Source: a virus (taxonomy: Duplodnaviria; Caudoviricetes). Taken from it: 25,184 nucleotides of DNA. The notes below the pieces were generated by a model. That model ran no database searches, was not told where the DNA came from, and saw only the letters and a program-made list of their open reading frames with translations. Position numbers and translations under genes: made by a program. Below, piece after piece: positions 1 through 16,313 of this stretch. Numbering within the stretch: the first letter of the stretch is position 1; each line of letters begins with the position of its first letter. The stretch is from IMG/VR virus record IMGVR_UViG_3300044676_003475, positions 1 to 25,184 of that record; one strand, 5' to 3'.

Positions 1-158
1 CGGGAGACTCGGAGGTTTCTTATTCGGTTGCGGACAAGATTGCGGAGCGTTTTAACCAAAAAAACAGCACGATACAACGCTGTCAGGAAAGACTAAACGC
101 CGCCGCAGAACATATGGGACACCAATTTATAACTGACCTAGTTGAGGAGGGTTACTGA
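1..158 (+). CDS. Hypothetical protein, 5'-truncated by window edge
   Basis: Frame starting at base 3 is open to TGA 156-158 (GDSEVSYSVADKIAERF...LVEEGY*); ends 1 nt before next ATG. Confidence 0.65.
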   Translation, partial: GDSEVSYSVADKIAERFNQKNSTIQRCQERLNAAAEHMGHQFITDLVEEGY

Positions 159-159
159 A

Positions 160-495
160 ATGGTTGCACAAGAATACCGAAACATAAAACCACACTTCGT
201 ACACGCGGATCATATGCCAATGGTTTGCCGGTGGTCTTGCATCCTGTTGGATCAGGATACAGAGAACCCACCATTTGAACCGGCGCGATACTTTGTGGTC
301 AATGTGTTTGCTGAAACAAAAGACGCAGTGTTGGATTGTTTAGGTGAGGAGTATCCGTGGTGCGATATTATGTATGTTGATAAGGCACTCGGTGGACATA
401 GTGACGATGATTTCCTAGAATCATGGTTGCATTATTTTGATGCAAACAATGCACAACCAGTAAGGGAGGCACCACATGGCAACGCTAGTAATTAA
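160..495 (+). CDS. Hypothetical early phage protein
   Basis: ORF 142..495; ATG 160 preferred because GAGGAGG lies at 144-150. Confidence 0.75.
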   Translation: MVAQEYRNIKPHFVHADHMPMVCRWSCILLDQDTENPPFEPARYFVVNVFAETKDAVLDCLGEEYPWCDIMYVDKALGGHSDDDFLESWLHYFDANNAQPVREAPHGNASN

Positions 496-721
496 GGAAG
501 GGGAGAAACCCTACATTGAGGACACTTGGAACCTTGACGATTTCCGGAATGTCGCTGACGGATACGATACCGAGACTTTTACTGATGAGGAACTGATTCA
601 GGCAATGGAGAGAGTAGCGGATAACTTTGACGCAAACGAGGGGATAACGTGGGAGACCCTTGAAGCCGGTCTTGATTTCATAGTATGGGAAAGGAGGAGA
701 AAGAATGATCACAACAAGTAG
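476..721 (+). CDS. Hypothetical acidic phage protein (81 aa)
   Basis: ORF preceded by GGGAGG; short overlaps with both neighbours. Confidence 0.75.
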   Translation: MATLVIKEGEKPYIEDTWNLDDFRNVADGYDTETFTDEELIQAMERVADNFDANEGITWETLEAGLDFIVWERRRKNDHNK

Positions 722-911
722 AAACGAGAACAAAACCCGTGTGGATTACCTTGTTTACAAACAAGTAAGCGAAGCACTCGACGACCTAAAGAAGGCCGCG
801 ACATTGATACACGATACCGGAGAGACCGAATCCGACCGGTTGGACAAGGCCGTTTGTTTTACGCAAGATGCGATTGACCAACTGGATTATTTCCTGAAGG
901 AGAATGCATGA
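705..911 (+). CDS. Hypothetical helical phage protein (68 aa)
   Basis: AGGAGG upstream; ATGA overlap with next ORF. Confidence 0.7.
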   Translation: MITTSRNENKTRVDYLVYKQVSEALDDLKKAATLIHDTGETESDRLDKAVCFTQDAIDQLDYFLKENA

Positions 912-1066
912 AAACTGAAACAATTATTCCCGACGATGTTTTGGAATCAAACGAACTGGACGTGGTGTCTGATGCGATTGTCGAATACATCACGAACAAG
1001 ACCGGCTTTTGCGTAAACACTTTGTCTTATAATATTGAGGTTACCTATGAACTCGACGAGACCTAA
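908..1066 (+). CDS. Small hypothetical protein (52 aa, MKTETIIPDD...YELDET), below ORF-track cutoff
   Basis: Translated by hand; AAGGAG RBS, ATGA coupling, fills the gap between neighbours. Confidence 0.7.
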   Translation: MKTETIIPDDVLESNELDVVSDAIVEYITNKTGFCVNTLSYNIEVTYELDET

Positions 1067-1322
1067 CACAATTTGCCATCCTGAAGCACTCGCAGACTGG
1101 AGAGCAAACGATGAAGACGCGCATAGTTACTTAACTACAGTACAAGAACAAATCAATATCGGGAGAACACAAGATGCAAGTACACGTGAACATAGTACGT
1201 ACGACAACAAAGTACAAAAAGAGCAAGAGAAGTTTGAAGGATTACTCGCACGACGTCTTGAAGACGCCATCGAGCAAGAAACTCGGAAGCGCGGGACGAT
1301 ACGTAAAGAAGGGGAAGCTTAA
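1047..1322 (+). CDS. Hypothetical protein overlapping the GP88-like gene
   Basis: ATG 1047 after GAGG; 149-nt overlap with 1174..1860 lowers confidence. Confidence 0.5.
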   Translation: MNSTRPNTICHPEALADWRANDEDAHSYLTTVQEQINIGRTQDASTREHSTYDNKVQKEQEKFEGLLARRLEDAIEQETRKRGTIRKEGEA

Positions 1323-1860
1323 AGGTGCTGAAGTCTACACCCTGACACTGACCGAGCGCGAAACCTGCCCGACATCGTGTGGACACTGGGACGATTGTTA
1401 CGGGAACAATATGCCGTTTGCCCATCGGCTTGAGCATGGCAGGGAGCTTGAAGATCGATTGATTGAGGAGGTGGGGGAGAAATGCCGGCTTGCCGCTAGT
1501 AAAGACCGTAAGGTACTGGTTCGATTGCATGTACTCGGGGACTTTTACAGTGTGGAATATGTGCAGTTATGGCGTAAGCTTTTGGTCTTGCACAAGAACC
1601 TCTATGTGTGGGGTTATACCCACGTCACACCATCGGATAACCTGCAAATCTACCACGAACTCACACTAGCGCGGGACGGGTTTCCAGAGAGGTGGGCTGT
1701 ACGATGGAGCGACACTTGCGGAAAGTTTAGTGCGAACAGTGAGGAGTTGACCGACGAGGGTATCGTGTGTCCGGAACAGACGGGACAAACGCAAGCCTGT
1801 ACCACGTGTTCTTTGTGTTGGGATGCTCCCGATAAAAACATCATTTTCAAAACGCATTGA
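1174..1860 (+). CDS. GP88-like (gene product 88) Cys-rich protein, probable Fe-S/radical-SAM-like fold
   Basis: Motifs TCPTSC...DCY, VRLHVLGDFY, WGYT and C-terminal CPEQ...CTTCSLCW. Confidence 0.75.
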   Translation: MQVHVNIVRTTTKYKKSKRSLKDYSHDVLKTPSSKKLGSAGRYVKKGKLKGAEVYTLTLTERETCPTSCGHWDDCYGNNMPFAHRLEHGRELEDRLIEEVGEKCRLAASKDRKVLVRLHVLGDFYSVEYVQLWRKLLVLHKNLYVWGYTHVTPSDNLQIYHELTLARDGFPERWAVRWSDTCGKFSANSEELTDEGIVCPEQTGQTQACTTCSLCWDAPDKNIIFKTH

Positions 1861-2081
1861 ATGAACTCGATAAACTCGACATCCACAACCAAAAGGAAAG
1901 GAAGGTGCGACAAGATAGGAAAGTTAAATCGACTCTAGGGTTTTGGCATCCCCAACTTAAAAAGCGCGTACAATGTTACGGCGCGATACAAGCTGATTAC
2001 TGGGGAGGGCGCGCGCGAGGCCGATACACCCCAGCCGCGCTCATCGCCTTGACCTACTTACTTTTTTGCTTAAATTAATTG

Positions 2082-2110
2082 TTGATGTATGTCTTTTTTT
2101 AACGTACAAA
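2082..2110 (+). promoter_or_regulatory. Putative sigma70 promoter for the DUF932 operon
   Basis: TTGATG-17 bp-TACAAA in AT-rich intergenic DNA, followed by hairpin 2118-2139 and RBS AGAGGA. Confidence 0.5.
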
Positions 2111-2159
2111 ATACCTACCGGATCGGACTGGCCGACCGGAACAAAGAGGACTTTTAGTC

Positions 2160-3167
2160 ATGAACGCAATAGTAAACAACCCAGAGCGCACCGCTCAGCG
2201 TATCCAAGATGGTTTGGAATTCACGCACAGCAATCCGCTTAATGTTGACTTCTTCCGTGAACTCGGAAGTGTCCAAAAAGAAGCGATGTATGACCGCGAC
2301 CGGAATTTGATCGAGGGATACTACGCACTCAAAAACAGCGCGACTCAGGAGCTTATCGGATCGCCACCAGTAGCTAAAACTTACAAACTGGTTGATCACG
2401 CACTAGCTTTCCAAGAACAGGCGCGGAGCATTCTCGAGAATCCATCGTTGCCGCATGACAACCTGACAGTCGTCGACCGTATTTTCGACAATGGCCGCCG
2501 CGCAACTCGCGCTGTTTACTTTAACGACCTCACTTTCGACATCGACGGGAAGGGACAAGGGATCACAGCACGAGCGGACATTATCAACAGCGTCGATATG
2601 TCTTGGGCTTTCCAAGTCTTCTCAGGAGCTTATCGGGATTACTGCCGTAATACCTGCGTTTTTGGCGGACAAAAAGCCTACCACCAGAAACGGAAGCACA
2701 CCGCCAACCTGTCGGTATCCGCAATGATCGCGAAGTCTACTCTCGGTCTCGGTATGTTCAACTCGCATCGCGACCAGATGAACGCATGGAAAACTATCGA
2801 CCTGCACCCGTCCCAGTGGGTTGAGATTCTCGAGAATACGATCTGCAAGAAGGGAGGGGAGGCCGCCGCGCTTAGCGTCGACAAATCAACCCGCGTCAAT
2901 GGCCGTTTGCTCGACTACATGAACCACCGTTTCAAGGAGGAACAGCGCGAATTGGGTTCTAGCATGTGGGCGGGATACAACGCGCTGACACACTGGGCAA
3001 CTCACGTCGATGAAACATGGGAGCGGGAGAACGAAGACGGCACACTGTCTGAACTCTCGACCTCTCGCGGTAACAGCAACCCGCACCGCGTCCGACTACA
3101 AAGGGAAGCCAAGGTGCGGAATGTACTCGAGTCGCCCTACTGGCTCGCACTGGAACAGGCCGCATGA
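2160..3167 (+). CDS. DUF932-like protein
   Basis: INSVDMSW...SGAYRDYCRN..VFG...KHT and W.GYNALTHWATH resemble DUF932 motifs (NSxDGS, RxxCxN, YNAxT). Confidence 0.75.
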   Translation: MNAIVNNPERTAQRIQDGLEFTHSNPLNVDFFRELGSVQKEAMYDRDRNLIEGYYALKNSATQELIGSPPVAKTYKLVDHALAFQEQARSILENPSLPHDNLTVVDRIFDNGRRATRAVYFNDLTFDIDGKGQGITARADIINSVDMSWAFQVFSGAYRDYCRNTCVFGGQKAYHQKRKHTANLSVSAMIAKSTLGLGMFNSHRDQMNAWKTIDLHPSQWVEILENTICKKGGEAAALSVDKSTRVNGRLLDYMNHRFKEEQRELGSSMWAGYNALTHWATHVDETWERENEDGTLSELSTSRGNSNPHRVRLQREAKVRNVLESPYWLALEQAA

Positions 3168-3253
3168 TTGAGTTGCTCGGACTCATCACACGGCTCGCGG
3201 GGATAGCACTTGCTATCCTCATCGTGACAACAATATTGGCCTCTATGGCCTAA
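3164..3253 (+). CDS. 29-aa single-pass membrane microprotein (MIELLGLITRLAGIALAILIVTTILASMA)
   Basis: Translated by hand; ATGA overlap with DUF932 stop; fills gap to next RBS; long hydrophobic run. Confidence 0.6.
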   Translation: MIELLGLITRLAGIALAILIVTTILASMA

Positions 3254-3265
3254 GGATTTGAAACC

Positions 3266-3700
3266 ATGAAAACTTTAGAAACATTCAAGACTGACCTCGG
3301 CACACTACGCACCGACCTAAACGCAACGACCTACAAAGTCGAAAAGGTGCAGGAACTCTTGAGCGACCTAGTTGAAAAACTCGACGGGATCTACGACCAG
3401 TCAGTATCCAACAAGGATCAGGCCGTCGACCTAGTACGCGCCGCCGACGATCTGAAACCCGCAAAGGATAATCGCGCTTTGTGTTCTTCTCATTACCGAA
3501 TGCTCGCTATCCTGAACGAGTATGGCGTAATGCACCGCGAACACATCGCGAGAATCTTAGGAGTGAAACCCGAAACGATTGGACAGTATGCCCACATCGT
3601 GAAACACCATGGACTCGCACACTTGAAAACGCGGCGGGGTGTTGTTAGTCTTCAATCACTGGCCGATGGGGTCAGCGATAATACAAACTTTAAGATCTAA
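3266..3700 (+). CDS. Coiled-coil plus (winged) helix-turn-helix DNA-binding protein
   Basis: N-terminal heptads; C-terminal HREHIARILGVKPETIGQYAHIVK HTH pattern; AAGGA RBS. Confidence 0.7.
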   Translation: MKTLETFKTDLGTLRTDLNATTYKVEKVQELLSDLVEKLDGIYDQSVSNKDQAVDLVRAADDLKPAKDNRALCSSHYRMLAILNEYGVMHREHIARILGVKPETIGQYAHIVKHHGLAHLKTRRGVVSLQSLADGVSDNTNFKI

Positions 3701-3711
3701 GGGGATCAAAG

Positions 3712-3924
3712 ATGAAAACTGAAACAACCTTGAACTTCACAGCCGAGCAACTCAACGAACTGAAGCGCATTGTCGATACCGTTGGTTGGGCGACACGCAA
3801 CGACGAGACAGGGCATATTGATGCTTACGTCTCAGAAACCCGCATGAAGTTTGCGAAGGATCTGGCCGGTGTTCTTGGCCGCATGGATACCGCCGCGATT
3901 GTCGGTACATCCGAAGGGATCTAA
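3712..3924 (+). CDS. Hypothetical protein (70 aa)
   Basis: AAGGGG RBS; last ORF before terminator. Confidence 0.7.
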   Translation: MKTETTLNFTAEQLNELKRIVDTVGWATRNDETGHIDAYVSETRMKFAKDLAGVLGRMDTAAIVGTSEGI

Positions 3925-3943
3925 GACTACCATTCCCTCATTT

Positions 3944-3969
3944 GCCCCGCTTCATGCGGGGTTTTTTTT
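3944..3969 (+). terminator. Intrinsic terminator of early cluster
   Basis: GCCCCGC-TTCAT-GCGGGGT followed by T run. Confidence 0.9.
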
Positions 3970-4470
3970 GCCCGTCTTATAGTCACTTCCCGCCTTACCG
4001 CCGGTATGCCCAGAAAATACCGTAAGGTCTTACCGCCACTGGGGATTGTGTTTTTCGGGTGTGTCCATAGTTGCTATATATCACGCCCCAGACATTCGGG
4101 TTTTTCCAAAGGGACAGGGGAGGATGACCCAGTTGATTCAACTCTACGGGGTTGGCATCACAAGAAAACACAGACAGGGGGGCGCGTATGTGTGCGCGCG
4201 GAGTGAATCCCTACCGGTTTGGCCTATGGTGTGGCGCGTGGTGTGAATCTGTTGGGTTCACTGAGGGTGGTAGCAGGAGCCCCCAAAGAAAAGATAAATA
4301 AATCAATGGGTTGGGGGTGGCAAGGGACACGGGGGGGTGCCCCTGCTAGTGCTAGCAATCCCCCCATATTTTTTTGGGTTTTGGAAATGGTGTTTCACGC
4401 AATGTTTCACATGCCGGCTTACCATTGGTACCACCGTTGGGAAGCCAGCCGGCTTACCGTCGGGGGTTAC
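3970..4470. other. Non-coding repeat/hairpin-rich block; probable terminus/packaging or origin region
   Basis: No credible ORFs, G/C runs, CTTACC repeats and inverted repeats; lies between early terminator and terS. Confidence 0.5.
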
Positions 4471-4475
4471 GGGGC

Positions 4476-4512
4476 AAAAAAAAGCCCCGACAGCAGGGGA
4501 TACTGTCAGGGC
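4476..4512 (-). terminator. Intrinsic terminator on minus strand
   Basis: Minus strand GCCCTGACAGTA-TCCCC-TGCTGTCGGGGC-T8: 12-bp stem whose two G-U pairs only form on this strand. Confidence 0.85.
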
Positions 4513-4578
4513 GCGGGGAGGGTGGTAAGCGTGGAGTTAACCAGTCGGTAATCTATGGGTTTACCCCGGCGGGCTTAC
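4476..4578 (-). ncRNA. Putative ~100-nt small RNA
   Basis: Bounded by promoter 4613-4585 and terminator 4512-4476; contains no AUG/GUG start. Confidence 0.65.
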
Positions 4579-4584
4579 AATCCC

Positions 4585-4613
4585 ATTGTACAGTCCAGAT
4601 TTCCATCCGTCAA
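4585..4613 (-). promoter_or_regulatory. Sigma70 promoter driving the sRNA
   Basis: Minus strand TTGACG-17 bp-TACAAT. Confidence 0.75.
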
Positions 4614-4669
4614 TAGCTACGGGAAATATATTTTTTTTCTCTTATTTTCTAGTACTCTGAGTACGTCTA

Positions 4670-4699
4670 TTGACAAAATTCTAAACCGACCCCCATAAT
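4670..4699 (+). promoter_or_regulatory. Sigma70-like promoter of packaging/structural operon
   Basis: TTGACA-18 bp-CATAAT with upstream AT-rich tract 4624-4650; divergent from the sRNA promoter. Confidence 0.65.
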
Positions 4700-4815
4700 G
4701 AATCTGTACCGGGGCCGAAATGGCAGGGGAAATCAACTTTTATAGTCCATGTGAACCAAAGTTCCGAGACCACGGGCCCCACGTACACTTTTTATTACAT
4801 ATATATGGTAAAACC

Positions 4816-5226
4816 ATGAACCTCCTCCCCCAGCAACGGAAGAAACGTGACCTCTCCGACCAACAACAAGCTTTCCTTACCGCACTCTTCGAGAACGGAG
4901 GTAACTTCTCGAGGGCTTGCGAGGTGTCAGGTTACTCGCAAGGTTCCATCGGGCACCTTAAAGAGTCTCTTGCCGACGAAATTATCGAAGGAGCACGGAA
5001 TATTCTTGCAGGTGGTGCTCTTAAGGCCGCGAATAAGCTCGTCTCAACCATTGACGCGCCGGAAATCGAGCGTGGAGATAACGTACGGCTCCAAGCCGCT
5101 GAATCTCTCCTCAACCGAGTGGGTCTCGGGAAACAGGAGACTCACAATGTCAATGTCCAAGCTGTACATGGGGTGGTACTACTCCCCCCGAAGAAAGAGA
5201 TGGTTATAGAACATGGCGAAGGATAA
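4816..5226 (+). CDS. terS: Putative terminase small subunit
   Basis: LSDQQQAFL...GGNFSRACEVSGYS HTH-like N-terminus, RLQAAESLLNRVG, C-terminal VVLLPPK; upstream of terL; ATG 4816 preferred over 4720. Confidence 0.7.
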   Translation: MNLLPQQRKKRDLSDQQQAFLTALFENGGNFSRACEVSGYSQGSIGHLKESLADEIIEGARNILAGGALKAANKLVSTIDAPEIERGDNVRLQAAESLLNRVGLGKQETHNVNVQAVHGVVLLPPKKEMVIEHGEG

Positions 5227-5446
5227 ACCTTACACAAATCCCCCTCGCGATCCGAATTGGACAGGGGCTCCTCCACTGGGTAAACAACGTGATTACAACA
5301 AAGATGCTCGCACTCAGTACCAAGAAAACAGAGACAATGAAGATTCCGCTGTCAAAAAGACGCGGGGATCGAGTATGCCAACTTCTTCACGTATCAAAGA
5401 GTCTAAAGACAACATAGTCAGGACTCCTAGACGTATTATAACGTAG
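5213..5446 (+). CDS. Small basic hypothetical protein
   Basis: Fills gap between terS and terL. Confidence 0.65.
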   Translation: MAKDKPYTNPPRDPNWTGAPPLGKQRDYNKDARTQYQENRDNEDSAVKKTRGSSMPTSSRIKESKDNIVRTPRRIIT

Positions 5447-5447
5447 T

Positions 5448-7154
5448 ATGAGCGAAGAAACGGTTGAAGAACAGCCAAAACGAAAGCCGGGACGCCCAAA
5501 AAAGGACCCGAATGCACCCAAAAGCCGCTACCATCTCTCTACTGCGGAAAAAGCGCGTCGAGCGACTCAAACCTCGATAAGACGCTCTAAGAAAGAGGCG
5601 GAAAAGAAACGAGCCGCCGCTACAAAACAAGCATATCGTGCATCAGTACGAGAAAAAGCCGCCTCCAAGGTCGAAACAGCCCTAAAGGGCGAAAAGTCAC
5701 GGGTAATCGACCAAGGAGACCTGAATGAATTACCGAAAGCTGTTTCAGACCTCGTTGGTGAGTCTGAGATCGTATTCCAGCCTAATGGAGGACCTCAAGA
5801 AGAGTTTCTCAGTGCTCCAGAGCAGGATGTGTTATATGGCGGGGCGGCCGGCGGCGGAAAAAGCTTCGCTCTTCTTGCTGACCCTCTCCGCTATTGTCAC
5901 AACCCTAACCATCGGGGGCTTCTTCTCCGCCGTACTCTCGATGAATTGACTGAACTCATATCAAAGTCGAAACAACTGTATCCCAAAGCGTTTCCCGGTG
6001 CCACATTCCGTGAAAGTAAGTCGACGTGGGTCTTCCCCTCTGGAGCGACCATATGGTTCTCGTACCTCGACAAAGATAAAGATGTCACTCGATACCAAGG
6101 ACAGGCATTTAATTGGATAGCCATTGATGAAGTCACTCAGTATCCCACACCCTATGTATGGGAATACCTTCGGTCCCGTCTACGGAGTACCGACGAGGAG
6201 TTGTCCCAAAACTTATCAATGCGATGTACAGCTAACCCCGGCGGCGTTGGCGGCTGGTGGGTCAAAAAAATGTACATTGACCAAGGAGAACCCGGTAAGC
6301 CCTTCGTTCCATCCGATTTGGAATCGGGAAAGCCATACGTATACCCGGATGGACATGAAAAGGCAGGCAAGCCGCTCTACTGGCGAAAATTCATCCCGGC
6401 CAGACTTACTGACAACCCGTACCTTATGCGGGACGGCCAGTACGAAGCCATGCTCCTCTCTCTCCCAGAAGTGGAGCGAAAGCGTTTACTTGATGGCGAC
6501 TGGGACGTTGCAGAAGGTTGTGCATTCCCAGAGTTTAACAAGCTCAAGCATTGCGTCGATCCTTACGACCTGCCAACCAACTGGCCCCGAATCAGAGCGG
6601 CCGACTACGGCTACGCAAGCCCTTCGTGCGTACTCTGGGGTGCAATCGATTGGGACAACAACATATGGGTCTATCGAGAACTTTACGTAAAACACTTTAC
6701 AGCAGAGCAACTTGCCGCTAAAATATTAGAAATGGAGGAGTACGATCCTACTCCTCACTATGCTGTATTAGATAAATCGTGCTGGAACCGTACAGGATAC
6801 GGGCCTTCCATCGCAGAAACGATGATACGGTCAGGCTGTCGTTGGACACCATCAGACAGTAATCGTATAGCGGGTAAGATGGAAATCCACAGCCGCCTCG
6901 GGGATAACCAGTTTACTGGCAAACCCACTGTCAAGTTTTTTAACACGTGTACAAACATAATAAAACAACTCGCTGGAATACCGCTATCTAAAACAAATTC
7001 AGAAGACGTCGACACAAAAGCTGAAGATCACGCCTATGACGCATTGCGTTATATGTTGATGACTCGCACATCTGGTTACGTCTCTATCCACAAAACTCTT
7101 AACGATATTAAGAATAGCACGTTCCAGCCACAGGATGCAACCTTCGGATACTAA
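5448..7154 (+). CDS. terL: Terminase large subunit
   Basis: Walker A YGGAAGGGKS, Walker B WIAIDE, coupling motif TANPGG, nuclease ADYG and DHAYDALRY. Confidence 0.95.
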   Translation: MSEETVEEQPKRKPGRPKKDPNAPKSRYHLSTAEKARRATQTSIRRSKKEAEKKRAAATKQAYRASVREKAASKVETALKGEKSRVIDQGDLNELPKAVSDLVGESEIVFQPNGGPQEEFLSAPEQDVLYGGAAGGGKSFALLADPLRYCHNPNHRGLLLRRTLDELTELISKSKQLYPKAFPGATFRESKSTWVFPSGATIWFSYLDKDKDVTRYQGQAFNWIAIDEVTQYPTPYVWEYLRSRLRSTDEELSQNLSMRCTANPGGVGGWWVKKMYIDQGEPGKPFVPSDLESGKPYVYPDGHEKAGKPLYWRKFIPARLTDNPYLMRDGQYEAMLLSLPEVERKRLLDGDWDVAEGCAFPEFNKLKHCVDPYDLPTNWPRIRAADYGYASPSCVLWGAIDWDNNIWVYRELYVKHFTAEQLAAKILEMEEYDPTPHYAVLDKSCWNRTGYGPSIAETMIRSGCRWTPSDSNRIAGKMEIHSRLGDNQFTGKPTVKFFNTCTNIIKQLAGIPLSKTNSEDVDTKAEDHAYDALRYMLMTRTSGYVSIHKTLNDIKNSTFQPQDATFGY

Positions 7155-9047
7155 ATGGCAGAATCAAAAGTCAAAATGAATGCTCCGCTACCGGATGCCG
7201 AAGTTCGTGCGAAACTAGCGGATAAGACCCTCACTTTCCGCGAAGCCCTAGAGTATTCTCACGCAAATGCGACAACACAAAACGCGAAGGACTTAATCAA
7301 AAACATCTACAATACAGGTCTCGGTCAAATGGGTATTGACCCAGATCAACCGTGGTCTGATTTTCAAAAGCGTTCTGTCTTCGAGAAGATGCATCAAAGT
7401 GACGCACACCCCGAAGTCAAAGCAGATCGCTACACTCATTTCCAAGCAGTCGAAAAAGTTTTAACTGTCTCGCCTTACGCAGAAGTTGAAGATCAGATGT
7501 ACCCGCTCAAAGTCATGACGAGTGGTGAGTCTAAGAAAGTTACAGGCAAAGGTCAAGCACGTTATAAGTCGCAGATGCGCGGCGTGGTATCCAACAAAGA
7601 GTGGAATAAGATTTACGAGGATGCGTTCCGTGACAAAGACGGGAAGCTCCTCATCACAAATGCAGAGCACCGTAATGCACTTATGTTCCATAAGATTACG
7701 GGTGGTCGTCCAGAGAACTTGTTTAGTAAGGGCGGAAACTTTCCTTTAACTGCCGACGATTTTATCTACGAGCTTGACGTTGATACTGGCGAAGAAGTTA
7801 TTGTGATGACTGCAAACCGTAACGTCAATAAAGGACGTGCGGCGATTCAGTTTTCCGGAGAAGACAAGGCTTGGGTTGAGAGCTTAATCAAAGAAGCAGA
7901 GACTCGTCCAAACCGTAATATCTTCCAGATCACTAATACCGAATACTCAAAAGTTTTTAAAGAGCACATCACCCCACAGATCGAAAAACGTCCTAAGGTG
8001 ATGGCTAAAGTACCAATCTTGCAAGGGAAGCCAATGGTTACCCCTGCTGTTGTGCGGCACGTAACTAACAAGATCATGACAGATGAGTTGCGTGTTCCTT
8101 TGGATTACACCAACGGCTTTATGGGACATGCCCCGCAGGATATCGGCCGTGGTTCGTATCTCGGTGAAGTGCCACCAAATATCTTGGGTGAAGTCAAGGA
8201 CGCTTTTATCGAAGACTCTGCCTACCAAGGCGGACACGCGACTACCCGTAGTTTCTGGTCAAAGTTTGGTATTGAAATCCCTGCGACTCTTGTCGATGAC
8301 GAAGGTGCTGAGTACGAAGTTAAGACAACTCCGGTACAAGGACGCTATCGCTGGGGTGAGACTGCGCGGGGCGACCAAAAGCCACGGGCAGAATTAACTG
8401 CCGCACAACGCAAAGCGATTGATGATCAGGCAAAAGCTGATAGTGCGATTGCAGAAGCGAGTGTTGAGAGTGCAAAGAATACTGGTGCTCAAGCTCGTCT
8501 TGAACGTCTCAATGCTGAAATTAAAGAAATGGAGACGGTCAACGATCCTGCGTATCTTGAGACGTATAAGAAGTACCAAGAAACTCTCCAGAAAAAAGCT
8601 GAGATTGAGAAGCAGGTAGCTGATGAAATCGCCGCTGAAAAGAAAGCCGCGAAGGCTCTGACTCCGGAAAGAGAGAAAGACATCGCAAAAAGCTTCTTTG
8701 ATATGTTCACCTCACCAACGGGCAAAAAGATTATTGGGGGTGCAGTAACTGTAGGCGGCACAACCCTACTCGGTGCTTCTCTCGTTCCCCGTATCGCAGA
8801 AGCGCAAGCAAAGATTGAAGCGGGCGAACCTGTAATCCCTTCTGTTACAGAGGAAGCAGGACAGTTCCTTCTCGAAGAAGGCCCCGTGGGTGCCATACAA
8901 GCGGGTCTCGAAATAGGACAAGAAGCAGTAGGTGCGGCACTCGAGCCTGCTCTCGAAGAATATGAAGTACAAGCCGAAGAGGCTGGACTAGACGAAGACA
9001 CTGAATCGCAGGCATTCCGCCTGTTCGGTGAACAACCATTCCAATAA
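7155..9047 (+). CDS. Tyrosine recombinase-like domain protein with C-terminal coiled coil and hydrophobic segment
   Basis: TGGR185PENL, NK226GR, A298xxR301H, MGH325, SY335 in tyrosine-recombinase order and spacing. Confidence 0.7.
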   Translation: MAESKVKMNAPLPDAEVRAKLADKTLTFREALEYSHANATTQNAKDLIKNIYNTGLGQMGIDPDQPWSDFQKRSVFEKMHQSDAHPEVKADRYTHFQAVEKVLTVSPYAEVEDQMYPLKVMTSGESKKVTGKGQARYKSQMRGVVSNKEWNKIYEDAFRDKDGKLLITNAEHRNALMFHKITGGRPENLFSKGGNFPLTADDFIYELDVDTGEEVIVMTANRNVNKGRAAIQFSGEDKAWVESLIKEAETRPNRNIFQITNTEYSKVFKEHITPQIEKRPKVMAKVPILQGKPMVTPAVVRHVTNKIMTDELRVPLDYTNGFMGHAPQDIGRGSYLGEVPPNILGEVKDAFIEDSAYQGGHATTRSFWSKFGIEIPATLVDDEGAEYEVKTTPVQGRYRWGETARGDQKPRAELTAAQRKAIDDQAKADSAIAEASVESAKNTGAQARLERLNAEIKEMETVNDPAYLETYKKYQETLQKKAEIEKQVADEIAAEKKAAKALTPEREKDIAKSFFDMFTSPTGKKIIGGAVTVGGTTLLGASLVPRIAEAQAKIEAGEPVIPSVTEEAGQFLLEEGPVGAIQAGLEIGQEAVGAALEPALEEYEVQAEEAGLDEDTESQAFRLFGEQPFQ

Positions 9048-9057
9048 GGAGAATACA

Positions 9058-9261
9058 ATGAAGTATCAAGCATCCGACATCATGACGGCTGACAAGAAGG
9101 GCATCGACTACAACTGCGGCGAAAACAACCTCGTTCGTGAATCAATGGATTTTGACACAGTAGCAAAGACAGACTCTCTGATCGAAGCTATGCCTAAGAC
9201 AAACAAAGAGTCATTGGATCAGTCGATCCTGACTTCCGACAAACAGTCTGCATTATCCTAA
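9058..9261 (+). CDS. Small hypothetical protein
   Basis: ATG 9058 after AAGGAG. Confidence 0.75.
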   Translation: MKYQASDIMTADKKGIDYNCGENNLVRESMDFDTVAKTDSLIEAMPKTNKESLDQSILTSDKQSALS

Positions 9262-9280
9262 ACTTTTAAGGTAAATATTT

Positions 9281-11368
9281 ATGAGTGCGTCTGGAGGGTT
9301 CGTTCAAGAGCCGGATGATGGACAGGTTAGCATCCTCGGCGCGGAAACGCAAATGCCGGGGCTTGCTGGCGTAATCCAGAGCAAGTTTGAAGATGCTGAG
9401 AATGGCCGTCGCACATTTGAGCAACGGTGGCTTCAGGCGTACAAGAATTTCCGTGGGGTGTATGACACTTCCACGCAGTACCGTGAGAGTGAGCGTTCTA
9501 AGGTTTTCATCAAGATTACCAAGACAAAAGTCTTAGCGGCATACGGTCAGATCATCGACATCCTCTTCGCGAACAAAAAGTTCCCGATTGTTGTCGAATC
9601 TACCCCTGTTCCGGAAGGAATTGCCGAGTTCGCACGTATGTCTGGCCCCTTAGAACAACTAGAAGACCCGTACGGCTACGAAGGAGACGGAAAGGTACTA
9701 GAGCCCGGTGCGACCCGTTTAGGCCCGTACAGAGCAACTGAGGCGGTCGAGGGACGTTCTAAACTGGGCGAACCCCAAGTTGAACCAGCGGCAGAAGCGG
9801 CTCGTATTCTCGAAAAGCACATTCATGATCAGCTACTGGACACGAATGCTGTTAACGTAATGCGAAACGCGGTGTTTGAAGCGGCATTACTCGGCACCGG
9901 TATTGTAAAAGGGCCCTTTAACTTCTATAAGCGAGTTAGCAAGTGGGAGCGGGACGAAAACGGGGAGCGTACCTATTCTCCTTACGAGAAAATCGTACCT
10001 CGTATCGAGCACGTATCCGTGTGGGACTTCCACCCAGATCCCTCTGCGACAAGCATCGAAGATTGTGAATACGTAATCCAACGTCATCGTATGAATCGTC
10101 AACAGCTACGTGCTCTGACTAGCCTCCCTTATTTTGACGCCACGTCTATTGAAGATACAATCGTAAAAGGGCCGAATTACGAGGATAAGTACTACGAAGA
10201 TACTATCCGTGAGGACGACACTGAGCCCTACTATCAAGAAAACCGTTTTGAGGTTCTCGAGTATTGGGGTGTCCTAGACGCTAAGTTTGCCCGTGAAGTT
10301 GGATTGGAAATCCCTGACACGATGAGTGCTCTTGATCAAGTGCAGATCAATGCTTGGGTATGTGGTAGTTCAGTACTCCGTTGTGTTTTAAATCCTTTTA
10401 CTCCAGCTCGCATTCCGTTCCAAGCGTTCCCTTACGAAGTAAATCCCTATCAAATCTGGGGTGTAGGTGTCGCTGAGAACATGGAAGATGCTCAGATGCT
10501 AATGAATGGTCACGTTCGTATGGCTATCGACAATTTAGCACTGGCGGGCAACCTCGTGTTTGACGTGGATGAAGCGAGTCTCGTCCCCGGCCAGAACTTC
10601 GACATATTCCCCGGCAAGGTATTCCGGAGACAGTCTGGTGTTACAGGTACGGCGATTAACGGAACGAAGTTCCCCAATACTGCACCCGAAAACATCCAAA
10701 TGTACCAAATCGCACGTCAGCTCGCAGATGAAGAGACCGGTATTCCTTCGATTATGCACGGACAGACAGGTGTAACAGGCACGGGCCGTACGTCTTCTGG
10801 TTTGTCGATGTTGATGAATGCGGGTGCACAGTCAGTTAAGACGGTGATCAAAAATATTGACGACCTACTACTAAAACCACTCGGAGAAGCGTACTTCCAG
10901 TGGAACATGCAGTACAACGAAGATCAACCAGACATTATCGGTGATCTCGAAATCAAGCCGCGAGGAACAGCGGCCGTGATGCAAAAAGAAGTACGGTCTC
11001 AGCGACTCACGACGTTGCTCCAAACTGTTGCAAACCCGATGCTCGCACCGTTCGTCAAACTACCAAACCTTGTGAGGGAGCTTGCGATTTCGCAAGATAT
11101 CGATCCAGATCAACTCGTAAACAACGTCGACGAAGCACAACTTTACGCAAAAGTCTTACAAGGATTACAAAATGCTCAGCAAGGAACAGGCCCAGAAGGT
11201 GGGCCCATTGGTCAACCATCCCCAAGCATGGGGGGCCCTAACCAGTTATCTGGCGGACCTCCACCAGTTGACGCTTCGGGGGTTGGTAACGGCACAATCG
11301 GAACGGGAAATGTTCCAGTTGCAGGGGAAGATGGTTTTACTGGACTCCCTCCTGAACCTCAAGGATAA
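9281..11368 (+). CDS. Portal protein
   Basis: 695 aa; LLGTGIVKG, DFHPDPSA, GVGVAENMEDAQ...N...R...DN motifs typical of podovirus portals; position between terL and scaffold/capsid. Confidence 0.9.
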   Translation: MSASGGFVQEPDDGQVSILGAETQMPGLAGVIQSKFEDAENGRRTFEQRWLQAYKNFRGVYDTSTQYRESERSKVFIKITKTKVLAAYGQIIDILFANKKFPIVVESTPVPEGIAEFARMSGPLEQLEDPYGYEGDGKVLEPGATRLGPYRATEAVEGRSKLGEPQVEPAAEAARILEKHIHDQLLDTNAVNVMRNAVFEAALLGTGIVKGPFNFYKRVSKWERDENGERTYSPYEKIVPRIEHVSVWDFHPDPSATSIEDCEYVIQRHRMNRQQLRALTSLPYFDATSIEDTIVKGPNYEDKYYEDTIREDDTEPYYQENRFEVLEYWGVLDAKFAREVGLEIPDTMSALDQVQINAWVCGSSVLRCVLNPFTPARIPFQAFPYEVNPYQIWGVGVAENMEDAQMLMNGHVRMAIDNLALAGNLVFDVDEASLVPGQNFDIFPGKVFRRQSGVTGTAINGTKFPNTAPENIQMYQIARQLADEETGIPSIMHGQTGVTGTGRTSSGLSMLMNAGAQSVKTVIKNIDDLLLKPLGEAYFQWNMQYNEDQPDIIGDLEIKPRGTAAVMQKEVRSQRLTTLLQTVANPMLAPFVKLPNLVRELAISQDIDPDQLVNNVDEAQLYAKVLQGLQNAQQGTGPEGGPIGQPSPSMGGPNQLSGGPPPVDASGVGNGTIGTGNVPVAGEDGFTGLPPEPQG

Positions 11369-11399
11369 TCATAAAAAGGTCGTAGAATCAAATGGCTAG
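11172..11399 (+). CDS. Small helical protein overlapping portal 3' end
   Basis: AAGGA RBS; W..L..YL...QLQGK..LL..LLNLK pattern resembles small post-portal genes; couples to 11392 start. Confidence 0.7.
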   Translation: MLSKEQAQKVGPLVNHPQAWGALTSYLADLHQLTLRGLVTAQSEREMFQLQGKMVLLDSLLNLKDNHKKVVESNG

Positions 11400-13806
11400 A
11401 TACGGCGGTGGGTATACTGTTTATGACGCGATTGCTCGTTCGAGAGCTCGCGCACAGTTTCGGTCTTATACTCCTCAACCTACTCCGGCAACAACACCGG
11501 GAGGTATTTTTGGAACTGACGGTACTCCAAAAACATCCACGTCTACCGTAAAAGATAGCACGAGAATCTCAGGAGGTTTACCTACGGGGGGCTTCGCCGC
11601 GAGCGCAGGGCAGTACAAGTCTCCGTTCATGGACCCTAACATGACCTTCGAGATGACACCCTCGGGTGTTGTTGGAACTCCTATCACAGAAGCTACGTCT
11701 AAGACTGGTTCTGGCTATATGACTGGTCCAGAAGCCGCTGGAAAAGCGGTGATGGGGACCTATGGTGCTTTTGATGTAACTACAAAAGCAGGAAAGGCGA
11801 TGCAGTCCGTTTTGGCGGCGTCTGACCCCACTCCCTTTGGATTGACAGGACTTGTTGCAGGAGAATTACGGACTGATCCGTATGGTCGTAGCGTCGCTCG
11901 TCCCGGCGGTATGCTCGGTGCAGTTACAGACATGGTTGTCGAAAAACAGCACGAAGTTGCATCTAAGATTTTTGCGGGAGAGCCGGGGTATCACCAGTTT
12001 TACTCGGGGGGACAGCTTGTCTCTCTTGTTCCCCAGAACAATCCCTTAACAGGAAACCAGATTGGGTACGCAGTCCTCGGTGCAACAGGCATTGATGCCA
12101 AAACCGCAACTGCACAATACGCCGCGATGTTTGGTTACGACCCACGCAGTGTTGATTTATCGAAGCGTCCCGGACAGAAAGGCTTTGGTCTCGAACTCCA
12201 AGGATTTGTGCAGGGTTCTGGCGGCGTAGCGCAGGACGGGACATTCATCGGCGCGAGTGGTGGGCAGAAACAACTCGCAGGTAAAGACCTAGAGCGTCAC
12301 CTCGGACTTGTTGCAGATATTTACGGTGTACAGGAAGCAGGCAAAACCCTACAGGGAATGAACGTGAGGGAGGACGTTAAGTCGACACTCATGGGAGCTC
12401 TCGAGTTGGGTGAAGTTACTGCGGAAGCGATTGTTGATAAGGATGGTAATACAGTAGGTTATACCACAGGTGTGGGCAACGTCGTGCGCTCTGGGGATGA
12501 TTCTATCGTCACAACCAAAGACGGTCTCGTAACTTCAGGTCAGGGCGTCATGTCTCCGAACGTCTACAACTACCTCCGCCAAGAAGCAGAGTTTGATAGC
12601 CAAGAACGCGCAGGGGGAGCTTTAGACGCCCCAACTCCGGGAATACAACGTGTTGACACAGGCGGCGGTGACGGGGGTAGGGACCATACCACAGTTTCCG
12701 GACGTGGCACTACGAACTTTAACCAATCTGACAGAAGCGAAGCATCCTCACGAGGAGAAACATTCTTCGCAGAGGGCGGCCCTGTCGTACCTACCCCAGA
12801 AGCCGCACAAGGTGAAGCCCCTGTTGTTGCCGACGCAGGATTTGTTGGCACAGAGCCTGAGAATGTTCCCGTGGGTGAAACTGTTGCGGACGACGTCCCG
12901 ATGGACGTTCCCGAAGGTACTTTCGTACTGAATGCGGCCGCTGTTGAATTCATGGGATCTGCCGACGTTAAGAAGATGATTCTCCAAGCGATGCAAGAAG
13001 CAGAGAAGCAAGGTATTGACATATCGCAGAGAAGTTCTAAAATACCTAAGGAAGAGCTTGTATCTTTAGTAGTTTCTAAAGGTGAAGTGATTATCCCTCC
13101 TGAACTCGCCCAAATCATCGGCTACGACAGACTCAATAAGATCAACAATCGCGGCAAAGCAGAAGTTGAAAAACGTCAAGCAGAGAATGGGGAACAGCCA
13201 GAAGGTGAGCGTGTTGCGGCCGCAGAGGGTGCAGATACACGTGGGATGATTGATCTCGGAGATGTCGTTGACTACCGAGACTTCAAGAACCCACAGACTA
13301 GCTGGATGAATATGCTCGAGGTTACTGGTGCAGGTGCTACAGGTAATCTTGAAGCAATGGAAAAAGCATTTTCGTATTCCCGTAAGTGGAATGCAAAAAC
13401 AAAGTCTGGTGATAAGTACGAGGACAGTTTCCGTCACACCCTAGTTGGTGGATTGTACGGTGACGTCGGAGGTTTTTACGCAGACGCAAAAGAGAACTTT
13501 CACAAGTACGTAGAAGCTTATCCTAAGATTGCGTACGAAAAAGCGAAGGGCATGCTCGGTGGTGAAACGAACCAAGAGCAGATAGGTATCGCCCGCAGTA
13601 TTATCGCAGAGTCAGACGTCGATCTCAACAATAATGCATTCGGCAGAGAACTCCGCAAACAAATCCCAGATGAAGAAAAATACGTTCGTACTGTAGAGCG
13701 TATGATGAATATTGCTGTAACGGAGGGAATCGATAAGGTTCCTTCGATAACAACAGAAGATGGTGAACAGATACGTCTCCAACTGAGCACCGTCCCAGCA
13801 GAATAA
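11392..13806 (+). CDS. Putative internal virion/ejection protein with C-terminal DUF6973-like domain
   Basis: Gly/Ala/Thr-rich N-half; FAEGG, ADDVP..EGTFV and SKGEVI motifs; C-terminal DSFRH...DLNNNAFGR. Confidence 0.6.
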   Translation: MARYGGGYTVYDAIARSRARAQFRSYTPQPTPATTPGGIFGTDGTPKTSTSTVKDSTRISGGLPTGGFAASAGQYKSPFMDPNMTFEMTPSGVVGTPITEATSKTGSGYMTGPEAAGKAVMGTYGAFDVTTKAGKAMQSVLAASDPTPFGLTGLVAGELRTDPYGRSVARPGGMLGAVTDMVVEKQHEVASKIFAGEPGYHQFYSGGQLVSLVPQNNPLTGNQIGYAVLGATGIDAKTATAQYAAMFGYDPRSVDLSKRPGQKGFGLELQGFVQGSGGVAQDGTFIGASGGQKQLAGKDLERHLGLVADIYGVQEAGKTLQGMNVREDVKSTLMGALELGEVTAEAIVDKDGNTVGYTTGVGNVVRSGDDSIVTTKDGLVTSGQGVMSPNVYNYLRQEAEFDSQERAGGALDAPTPGIQRVDTGGGDGGRDHTTVSGRGTTNFNQSDRSEASSRGETFFAEGGPVVPTPEAAQGEAPVVADAGFVGTEPENVPVGETVADDVPMDVPEGTFVLNAAAVEFMGSADVKKMILQAMQEAEKQGIDISQRSSKIPKEELVSLVVSKGEVIIPPELAQIIGYDRLNKINNRGKAEVEKRQAENGEQPEGERVAAAEGADTRGMIDLGDVVDYRDFKNPQTSWMNMLEVTGAGATGNLEAMEKAFSYSRKWNAKTKSGDKYEDSFRHTLVGGLYGDVGGFYADAKENFHKYVEAYPKIAYEKAKGMLGGETNQEQIGIARSIIAESDVDLNNNAFGRELRKQIPDEEKYVRTVERMMNIAVTEGIDKVPSITTEDGEQIRLQLSTVPAE

Positions 13807-15830: not shown

Positions 15831-15859
15831 TTGACATAAGGAATTTCATAATATAGAAT
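15831..15859 (+). promoter_or_regulatory. Sigma70 promoter for lysozyme/tail genes
   Basis: TTGACA-17 bp-TAGAAT, followed by TAAGCCCGCCGGGG at 15865-15878. Confidence 0.8.
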
Positions 15860-15889
15860 CCGATTAAGCCCGCCGGGGGTATACACACT

Positions 15890-16066
15890 ATGGCACAGAG
15901 AGGTTTGTGGGACAACATCCACGCCAAGCGTAAGAGAATCGAGCAAGGCTCAAAGGAAAAGATGCGTAAACCGGGAGATCCCGGAGCACCTACTGCAAAA
16001 GCACTACGTGAGTCTAAAGCAATGGGTGGTTATACCGAAAGATGGAGTAAAGCACGTGGCGGTTGA
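15890..16066 (+). CDS. Small basic protein (58 aa, MAQRGLWDNIHAKRKRI...), below ORF-track cutoff
   Basis: Translated by hand; GGGGGT upstream; GLW.NIHAKR/KPG..GAPT pattern recalled from marine phages. Confidence 0.75.
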   Translation: MAQRGLWDNIHAKRKRIEQGSKEKMRKPGDPGAPTAKALRESKAMGGYTERWSKARGG

Positions 16067-16313
16067 ATATCGCGGGGAGAAGTTTTCTGGGTACAACAAA
16101 CCCAAGCGTACTCCTAACGGACCGAAGAAGTTTGCGGTGCTCGCTAAAAAAGGAGACAAGGTAAAGCTTGTTCGTTTTGGCGATCCGGATATGAAAATCA
16201 AAAAAGATCAACCATCAAACAAGAAATCATATTGCGCTCGCTCCTCTGGAATTAAGGGTACTGATGATAAGTTCAGTGCAAATTACTGGTCACGGAAAAA
16301 GTGGAATTGTTAA
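16056..16313 (+). CDS. Small basic protein (RFG...KSYCAR...NYWS..W; DUF6321-like)
   Basis: ORF 16008..16313; GTG 16056 after GGAG preferred; TAATG overlap with lysozyme. Confidence 0.7.
   Translation: MAVEYRGEKFSGYNKPKRTPNGPKKFAVLAKKGDKVKLVRFGDPDMKIKKDQPSNKKSYCARSSGIKGTDDKFSANYWSRKKWNC

Follow-up and report, generated by a model that had tools for sequence, protein, structure and literature searches.

The window, as we call the whole stretch of 25,184 nucleotides analysed here, is a fragment of a marine podophage of the HMO-2011/HTVC103P-like kind. It shares the packaging module of HTVC103P-type and HMO-2011-type phages, with TerL proteins (5448-7154 in the window) that are 47-57% identical, and differs from them in that its early block faces the outward promoter that is the subject of this report. 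The terminase genes are followed by portal and capsid genes; in the region from terL to portal lies a 630-aa ORF (7155-9047), assigned to no PHROG family and matched just weakly in Pfam, which has a same-place counterpart in two relatives (G002, G004). On the other side, a plus-strand block (1-3924) carries genes for GP88-like, DUF932 and helix-turn-helix proteins, and the outward unit sits in the gap of about 890 bp between this early block and terS. A blastn comparison of 3900-4850 with named phages gave no match, and no TerS relatives were found in 185,579 GTDB genomes; one match to promoter plus box, in a MAG titled Oscillospiraceae, was taken as chance. The features referred to below are the following.

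3266 to 3700, plus strand: gene for a coiled-coil and winged helix-turn-helix protein, a candidate box-binding factor.
3944 to 3969, plus strand: early-block terminator, facing the outward promoter; only its plus strand has a U tract.
4319 to 4343, no strand assigned: family-wide G/C motif, probably belonging to the packaging (pac) signal, towards which the outward promoter is directed.
4413 to 4460, no strand assigned: short GCCGGCTTACC repeats beyond the outward terminator; related repeats occur at the early-promoter box copy in relatives.
4476 to 4512, minus strand: intrinsic terminator, a 12-bp stem (4512-4484, two G-U pairs) with a C-rich loop, then U8 (4483-4476).
4513 to 4524, minus strand: C-rich single-stranded linker, the putative seed of the first-pass annotation; variable, and missing in some relatives.
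4525 to 4578, minus strand: predicted 5′ hairpin, closed by pairing of 4578-4573 with 4530-4525; its inner helix occludes the G run.
4562 to 4576, minus strand: promoter-proximal box, core CCCGCCGGGG, at about +6 to +15; nearly invariant, unlike the rest of the unit.
4585 to 4613, minus strand: outward sigma70-type promoter, TTGACG (4613-4608), 17-nt spacer, TACAAT (4590-4585), predicted start at 4578.
4670 to 4699, plus strand: late (terS) promoter, TTGACA-18-CATAAT, divergent from the outward promoter.
4706 to 4790, plus strand: conserved rod-like leader or second small RNA, directly after the terS promoter.
4816 to 5226, plus strand: terminase small subunit gene, product 37-45% identical to the annotated TerS of HTVC115P, HTVC103P, HTVC033P and CRP-1.
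15831 to 15889, plus strand: second boxed promoter, TTGACA-17-TAGAAT, with the box at 15866-15880 and an ATG at 15890.

The first-pass annotation had described 4476-4613 as a stand-alone small RNA gene on the minus strand, and the elements it listed are in place: the promoter at 4613-4585, divergent from the late promoter; a predicted RNA of about 100 nt (103 nt, 4578-4476) devoid of ATG, GTG and TTG; and, at 4512-4476, the strand-specific 12-bp stem with two G-U pairs and U8. The fold z-score of this RNA is -3.97, against -0.57 for its plus-strand complement. Promoter-like sites occur at chance level in positions 1-12000 (12, compared with 10.9+/-3.3 in shuffled sequences), so the case against chance rests on conservation in relatives. 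Promoter and box are present in 50 of 54 sequences (the window and 53 terS loci), the four misses being contigs that end 2-252 bp upstream of terS. Among 36 distinct units, one is cut inside the terminator (L034) and one lacks the terminator (L052); the remaining RNAs measure 77-104 nt, and their middle portion varies freely. A pattern scan gave 44 matches, every one on a contig already known through terS, and the promoter lay upstream in 21 of 22 metagenome matches. RNA toxins of the CreT type have a Shine-Dalgarno sequence followed by a start codon. This arrangement is absent from the outward RNA, which led us to reject a mini-ORF or RNA-toxin reading; 30 of 31 distinct RNAs have no ATG before the terminator and no ATG, GTG or TTG within 19 nt after the G run. 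The -10 hexamer also forms half of an inverted repeat (TACAAT-3 nt-ATTGTA, 4576-4590 in the window) that extends across the predicted start and has been retained by most of the focal clade.

Structure was assessed on an alignment of 31 distinct RNAs, leaving out five distant ones, whose terminators were misaligned, and an unrelated one without terS (L152). Of the terminator cells, 95.4% are paired, and 8 of the 12 pairs show two-sided changes. For the 5′ helix the corresponding values are 80.3% and 2 of 6 pairs, the compensatory pairs being carried by five sequences and probably reflecting one event (G-U variants also occur); sliding controls gave 30-47%. The RNAalifold consensus kept the terminator and a 3-bp hairpin within the box but not the 5′ helix. 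All 31 terminator loops, of 5-9 nt, contain at least three C residues, and the internal loop of the 5′ hairpin exposes CCGCC. Outside the focal clade the terminators are different hairpins, several of them without a C-rich loop. A covariance model built from relatives, a check the annotation had suggested, recovered the held-out syntenic unit of cultured phage HTVC115P (E=0.025, a rough value) and four more distant loci. These alignments support a discrete, structured, ORF-free RNA in this clade.

The near-invariant box (consensus CC-R-C-N-GGGG) is found at other promoters as well. A wider scan of at least 120 loci gave 110 distinct ones, 70 of which have terS divergently upstream; at all 70 terS-linked loci among the matches listed, the box starts 10-13 nt after the -10 hexamer, where the pattern allowed 4-14. 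The second boxed promoter of the window, 3′ of the capsid-gene terminator, is conserved in relatives and carries the box and spacer of the outward unit, but ahead of an ATG. Post-capsid copies are present in four near-complete relatives (G001-G004), and similar copies before an ATG in more distant phages; the same four relatives have a box at their early-operon promoter, beside the primase/helicase operon. The site is thus repeated in fixed register at outward, early and post-capsid promoters, as expected of an operator. Cultured pelagiphages HTVC103P, 104P, 115P and 033P have an outward promoter with a box-like motif; none was called by pattern search in HMO-2011, four CRP phages or RHph_N3_19.

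Several further observations concern boxed and other promoters. A non-coding conserved leader follows the early-promoter box (L160, L163 and L165, from G002, G003 and G001, respectively, and L115, near 1615 in G004), and shares blocks among the four genomes together with some of the short repeats seen beyond the outward terminator. The post-capsid promoter leads into small lysine/arginine-rich ORFs (15890-16313), which are exchanged from one relative to another, promoter and box remaining in place. Eight other viral contigs without a terS link (L266, L277, L291, L319, L325, L334, L342, L359) carry a distinct recurring motif, a sigma70 promoter with AACTCTGCCAGGGTTCA directly after it.

Most family members keep promoter and box without a called terminator. 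A terminator was called at 12 of the 70 terS-linked loci among the matches listed and none at the other 58; of the four cultured pelagiphages, only HTVC115P has one. On a quick TerS tree (114 rows, 135 columns, many open forks), 44 rows were called terminated and four more were found to be so by locus-level check, the automatic caller having missed interrupted U tails (L007, L009, L014 and L026 here, L385 in the orientation set described below). All 32 rows of the focal clade are terminated, and a separate terminated group includes HTVC115P. "Stand-alone" fits in part: the clade has a discrete structured RNA without reading frame, but its most conserved portion is a box common to mRNA promoters, and across the family that portion usually occurs without the terminator. 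Gene orientation was scored in the first 80 of 120 loci plus 21 chosen close ones, which gave 78 distinct terS-linked loci, 22 too short to orient and 56 with enough flank. Where a terminator is present, the neighbouring genes face the promoter at 19 loci, run the same way at one and are mixed at one; where it is absent, 24 run the same way, seven face it and four are mixed. As the 19 facing loci form one over-sampled clade, this link between terminator and orientation is a hint only.

The other side of the gap holds two conserved elements. The rod-like RNA at 4706-4790 is closed by a helix between its 5′ and 3′ ends, is followed by a pyrimidine run and has no Rfam match. In 16 relatives its outer and two inner helices show two-sided changes and, at most positions, are paired in 13-16 of 16 rows. 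It could act as a leader switch or represent a second small RNA. In many distant relatives terS directly follows the promoter with no such leader, and at five loci (L122, L125, L126, L135, L137) a short ORF with a hydrophobic start takes its place between late promoter and terS. The second element, the G/C motif at 4319-4343, has similar counterparts outside the late promoter in HMO-2011, CRP-1, -3, -13, -345, HTVC103P and HTVC033P, and in phiM6 at nt ~55-78, position 1 of that genome being a PhageTerm-predicted pac cut (PMC6256558). By inference, packaging of the window phage would start near 4265. The outward unit would then lie 210-350 bp inside the packaging start, facing outward, with its terminator ending about 130 bp short of the motif. 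Contig ends give no sharp terminus: 15 of 32 fall within 650 nt downstream (wide set, among the matches listed), a slight enrichment with no fixed distance. As HMO-2011 and the four CRP phages have the motif and no called outward promoter, the promoter is not essential for packaging across the family.

Since the constant of the family is promoter plus box and not the RNA, the interpretation we prefer (probability about 0.45) is that of a boxed, operator-like promoter that acts in cis and is capped in this clade, in which the adjacent genes are directed towards it. The promoter is likely read by the host sigma70 RNA polymerase. The box would constitute an operator-like site for a phage regulator, presumptively the product of the winged-helix gene (3266-3700), which would jointly control the outward, early and post-capsid promoters; outward firing might matter for the divergent terS promoter or for the packaging signal nearby. 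With downstream genes in the same orientation, transcription would proceed in their direction. In the focal clade the neighbours point towards the promoter and are expressed from a different boxed promoter; there the terminator would cap the transcript at about 100 bases, so that polymerase reaches neither the packaging signal nor the early block. By folding away the G run, the 5′ hairpin would stop it from pairing with the C-rich arm and loop of the terminator, thereby securing termination. Consistent with this interpretation, the box follows other promoters in a fixed register, no terminator was called at most of the listed loci or in three of the four pelagiphages, the terminators outside the clade differ, the neighbours of terminated loci mostly face the promoter and the middle of the RNA is free to vary. 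Against it stand the 5′ helix kept in most of the focal clade and the C-rich loops found throughout the 31 RNAs, which suggest more constraint on the RNA than termination strictly needs and leave room for a decoy role, as well as the seven loci with facing neighbours and no called terminator, and the phages that have the packaging-like motif but no called outward promoter. The match of the candidate regulator to PF13518 (E=2.5e-4) is below cut-off; its structure model (pLDDT 84) matches the BirA DNA-binding domain by VIA-align (Z 9.7, rmsd 1.4, 60 aligned) and it is conserved within the clade at 31-93%, but tblastn did not find the gene in the pelagiphage records fetched, though these carry the box-like motif. 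Overall, the predicted small RNA is likely made, and likely serves promoter control and insulation rather than mRNA silencing.

The main rival, a distinctly less probable reading, takes up another suggestion of the first-pass annotation, that the RNA decoys a protein. A stable RNA bearing at its 5′ end the box present on early and post-capsid mRNAs, and no start codon, would titrate a box-reading factor and so tune those operons. In its favour, box and spacer are the same as those preceding the post-capsid ATG, the RNAs, with one exception, lacking a start codon at that place; the 5′ helix shows covariation, with CCRCC exposed in an internal loop; and terminators are found in separate parts of the TerS tree, HTVC115P included. 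However, the 58 listed loci with no called terminator would produce no discrete RNA, the G run is buried in the minimum-energy fold, in contrast to the short hairpin that the mRNA leader is predicted to form, and the sole candidate factor has a predicted DNA-binding fold. The larger picture that would follow, a marine phage family marking host-polymerase promoters with an undescribed box and one branch using a ~100-nt self-mimic to time early against late expression, has the same lower probability.

It is unlikely that the unit is an attenuated leader, in which antitermination would allow read-through to the packaging signal and antisense transcription into the early block, timing packaging or shutting off early genes. 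In favour of this reading, the promoter points at the pac-like motif, the U tract of the early terminator is confined to the plus strand, and RNA-run contigs that include the outward terminator run past it. RNA data came from 8 of 24 listed runs, as unstranded contigs at small shares. Contigs over the unit occur in three of the eight (X2, X3, X11), the other five giving no cover, and all three run past the terminator; the discrete ~100-nt transcript anticipated by the annotation is not seen among them. In X11 the contig begins at 4573, 5 nt away from where transcription is predicted to start, but continues through the terminator, and a further contig of this run extends upstream of the late promoter. 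The X3 contig covers both promoters, which would be expected of DNA, and DNA may be the source of the read-through contigs. A Pfam scan of 25 proteins brought up no recognisable antiterminator. Lambdoid promoter pR′ gives a short terminated leader RNA, and a short terminated RNA is likewise predicted here. The available part of PMC5001585 shows two further likenesses, a strong sigma70 promoter and a conserved element in the first transcribed bases. The -10-like repeat and elemental pause described there are absent after the start, base counts of 70 loci among the matches listed showing only the G/C-rich box; moreover, no gene resembling Q was recognised, and in this clade the terminator has no co-oriented genes behind it.

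Two other systems serve as precedents for a promoter directed at a genome end. In T7, polymerase pauses at the concatemer junction, and transcription-coupled packaging, as far as the available part of PMC3276506 describes it, resembles the present arrangement in having a promoter beside the terminase genes aimed at the presumed packaging-start end. It differs in that the phiM6 relative is predicted to be pac-type and the window's terminator stops about 130 bp before the motif; in addition, no T7-type single-subunit RNA polymerase was matched in five near-complete relatives, in a search whose control gave no match either. Phikmvvirus promoter P001 (LUZ19), according to the portion of 10.1101/2023.10.13.562163 consulted, is a conserved promoter against the coding strand near the genome end, is read by the phage RNA polymerase and yields a long antisense RNA, proposed to act through the very process of transcription. 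The conserved outward promoter near an end is common to both; sigma70 hexamers, a shared downstream box and a clade-specific terminator set the window's promoter apart from P001 as that portion presents it.

About as improbable as the attenuated leader is the proposal central to the first-pass annotation, a base-pairing RNA whose C-rich linker or loop would block Shine-Dalgarno sites of host or phage mRNAs. C-rich small RNAs of the anti-Shine-Dalgarno type are known, such as cuckoo/CcsR. The outward RNA has, at sequence level, its own promoter, an intrinsic terminator and no reading frame, as such RNAs do, and the C-rich tract is indeed present before the terminator (4529-4515); its first five bases, however, are taken up as the 3′ strand of the helix with the RNA's 5′ end, which leaves about 11 nt predicted to be single-stranded. 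Variants of the form CC(C/U)(U/G)CC are present in 25 of the 31 linkers; the terminator loops are all C-rich, and loop and box G run are complementary. Yet no conserved single-stranded seed emerges among the 31 RNAs: the exact tract is found in three and CCUCC in 14, and the linker is missing from three (L002, L004, L011), which speaks against the anti-Shine-Dalgarno seed. Pairing to the 28 start regions of the window, another check that had been proposed, gave a best gain of -9.5 kcal/mol, close to the values of shuffled sequences. Pairing to the terS leader, attractive on the window's sequence, was rejected, as cognate pairs (-36.03) did no better than non-cognate ones (-35.98) and cofolding brought no gain. 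Moreover, the entire minus strand is C-rich here, 30-33% beyond the terminator. With Rfam 15, no family reached the gathering threshold in the window; the best score over the unit, sX13 of Xanthomonas, was 17.2 bits against a cut-off of 50. The unit resembles sX13 (RF02232) and asX2 (RF02236) in length (~100 nt), own promoter and terminator with a C-rich loop, and differs in scoring far below the Rfam cut-offs, in lacking a conserved seed and in having as its conserved part an element common to mRNA promoters. Least credible of all are replication-priming sites, where the G-rich 5′ end would form an R-loop priming the T7-like replisome of a phage presumed to have no RNA polymerase of its own, as at T4 and T7 origins: relatives do encode Pol A (four of five longer ones), primase and helicase, one boxed promoter lies beside the primase/helicase operon with repeats and an A/T-rich stretch follows the G run, but in this clade the inner helix hides that run and the terminator would release the RNA.

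HMO-2011-like and HTVC103P-like podophages rank among the most abundant marine phage groups, according to the available parts of 10.1101/2019.12.14.876532 and PMC9038755. The main text of PMC9038755 contains none of the words "promoter", "noncoding" and "small RNA", and that of PMC12753301 neither "promoter" nor "noncoding". The literature searched, supplements aside, holds no description of a boxed outward promoter element, and none of the timing of gene expression in these podophages. The element is real and apparently undescribed, and an estimated 500-650 IMG/VR stretches match the box pattern. Cultured phages offer a natural comparison, HTVC115P having the terminator and none being called in HTVC103P, 104P and 033P. 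The G/C motif suggests where packaging starts, and the box provides a sequence handle on the timing of gene expression in abundant marine podophages.
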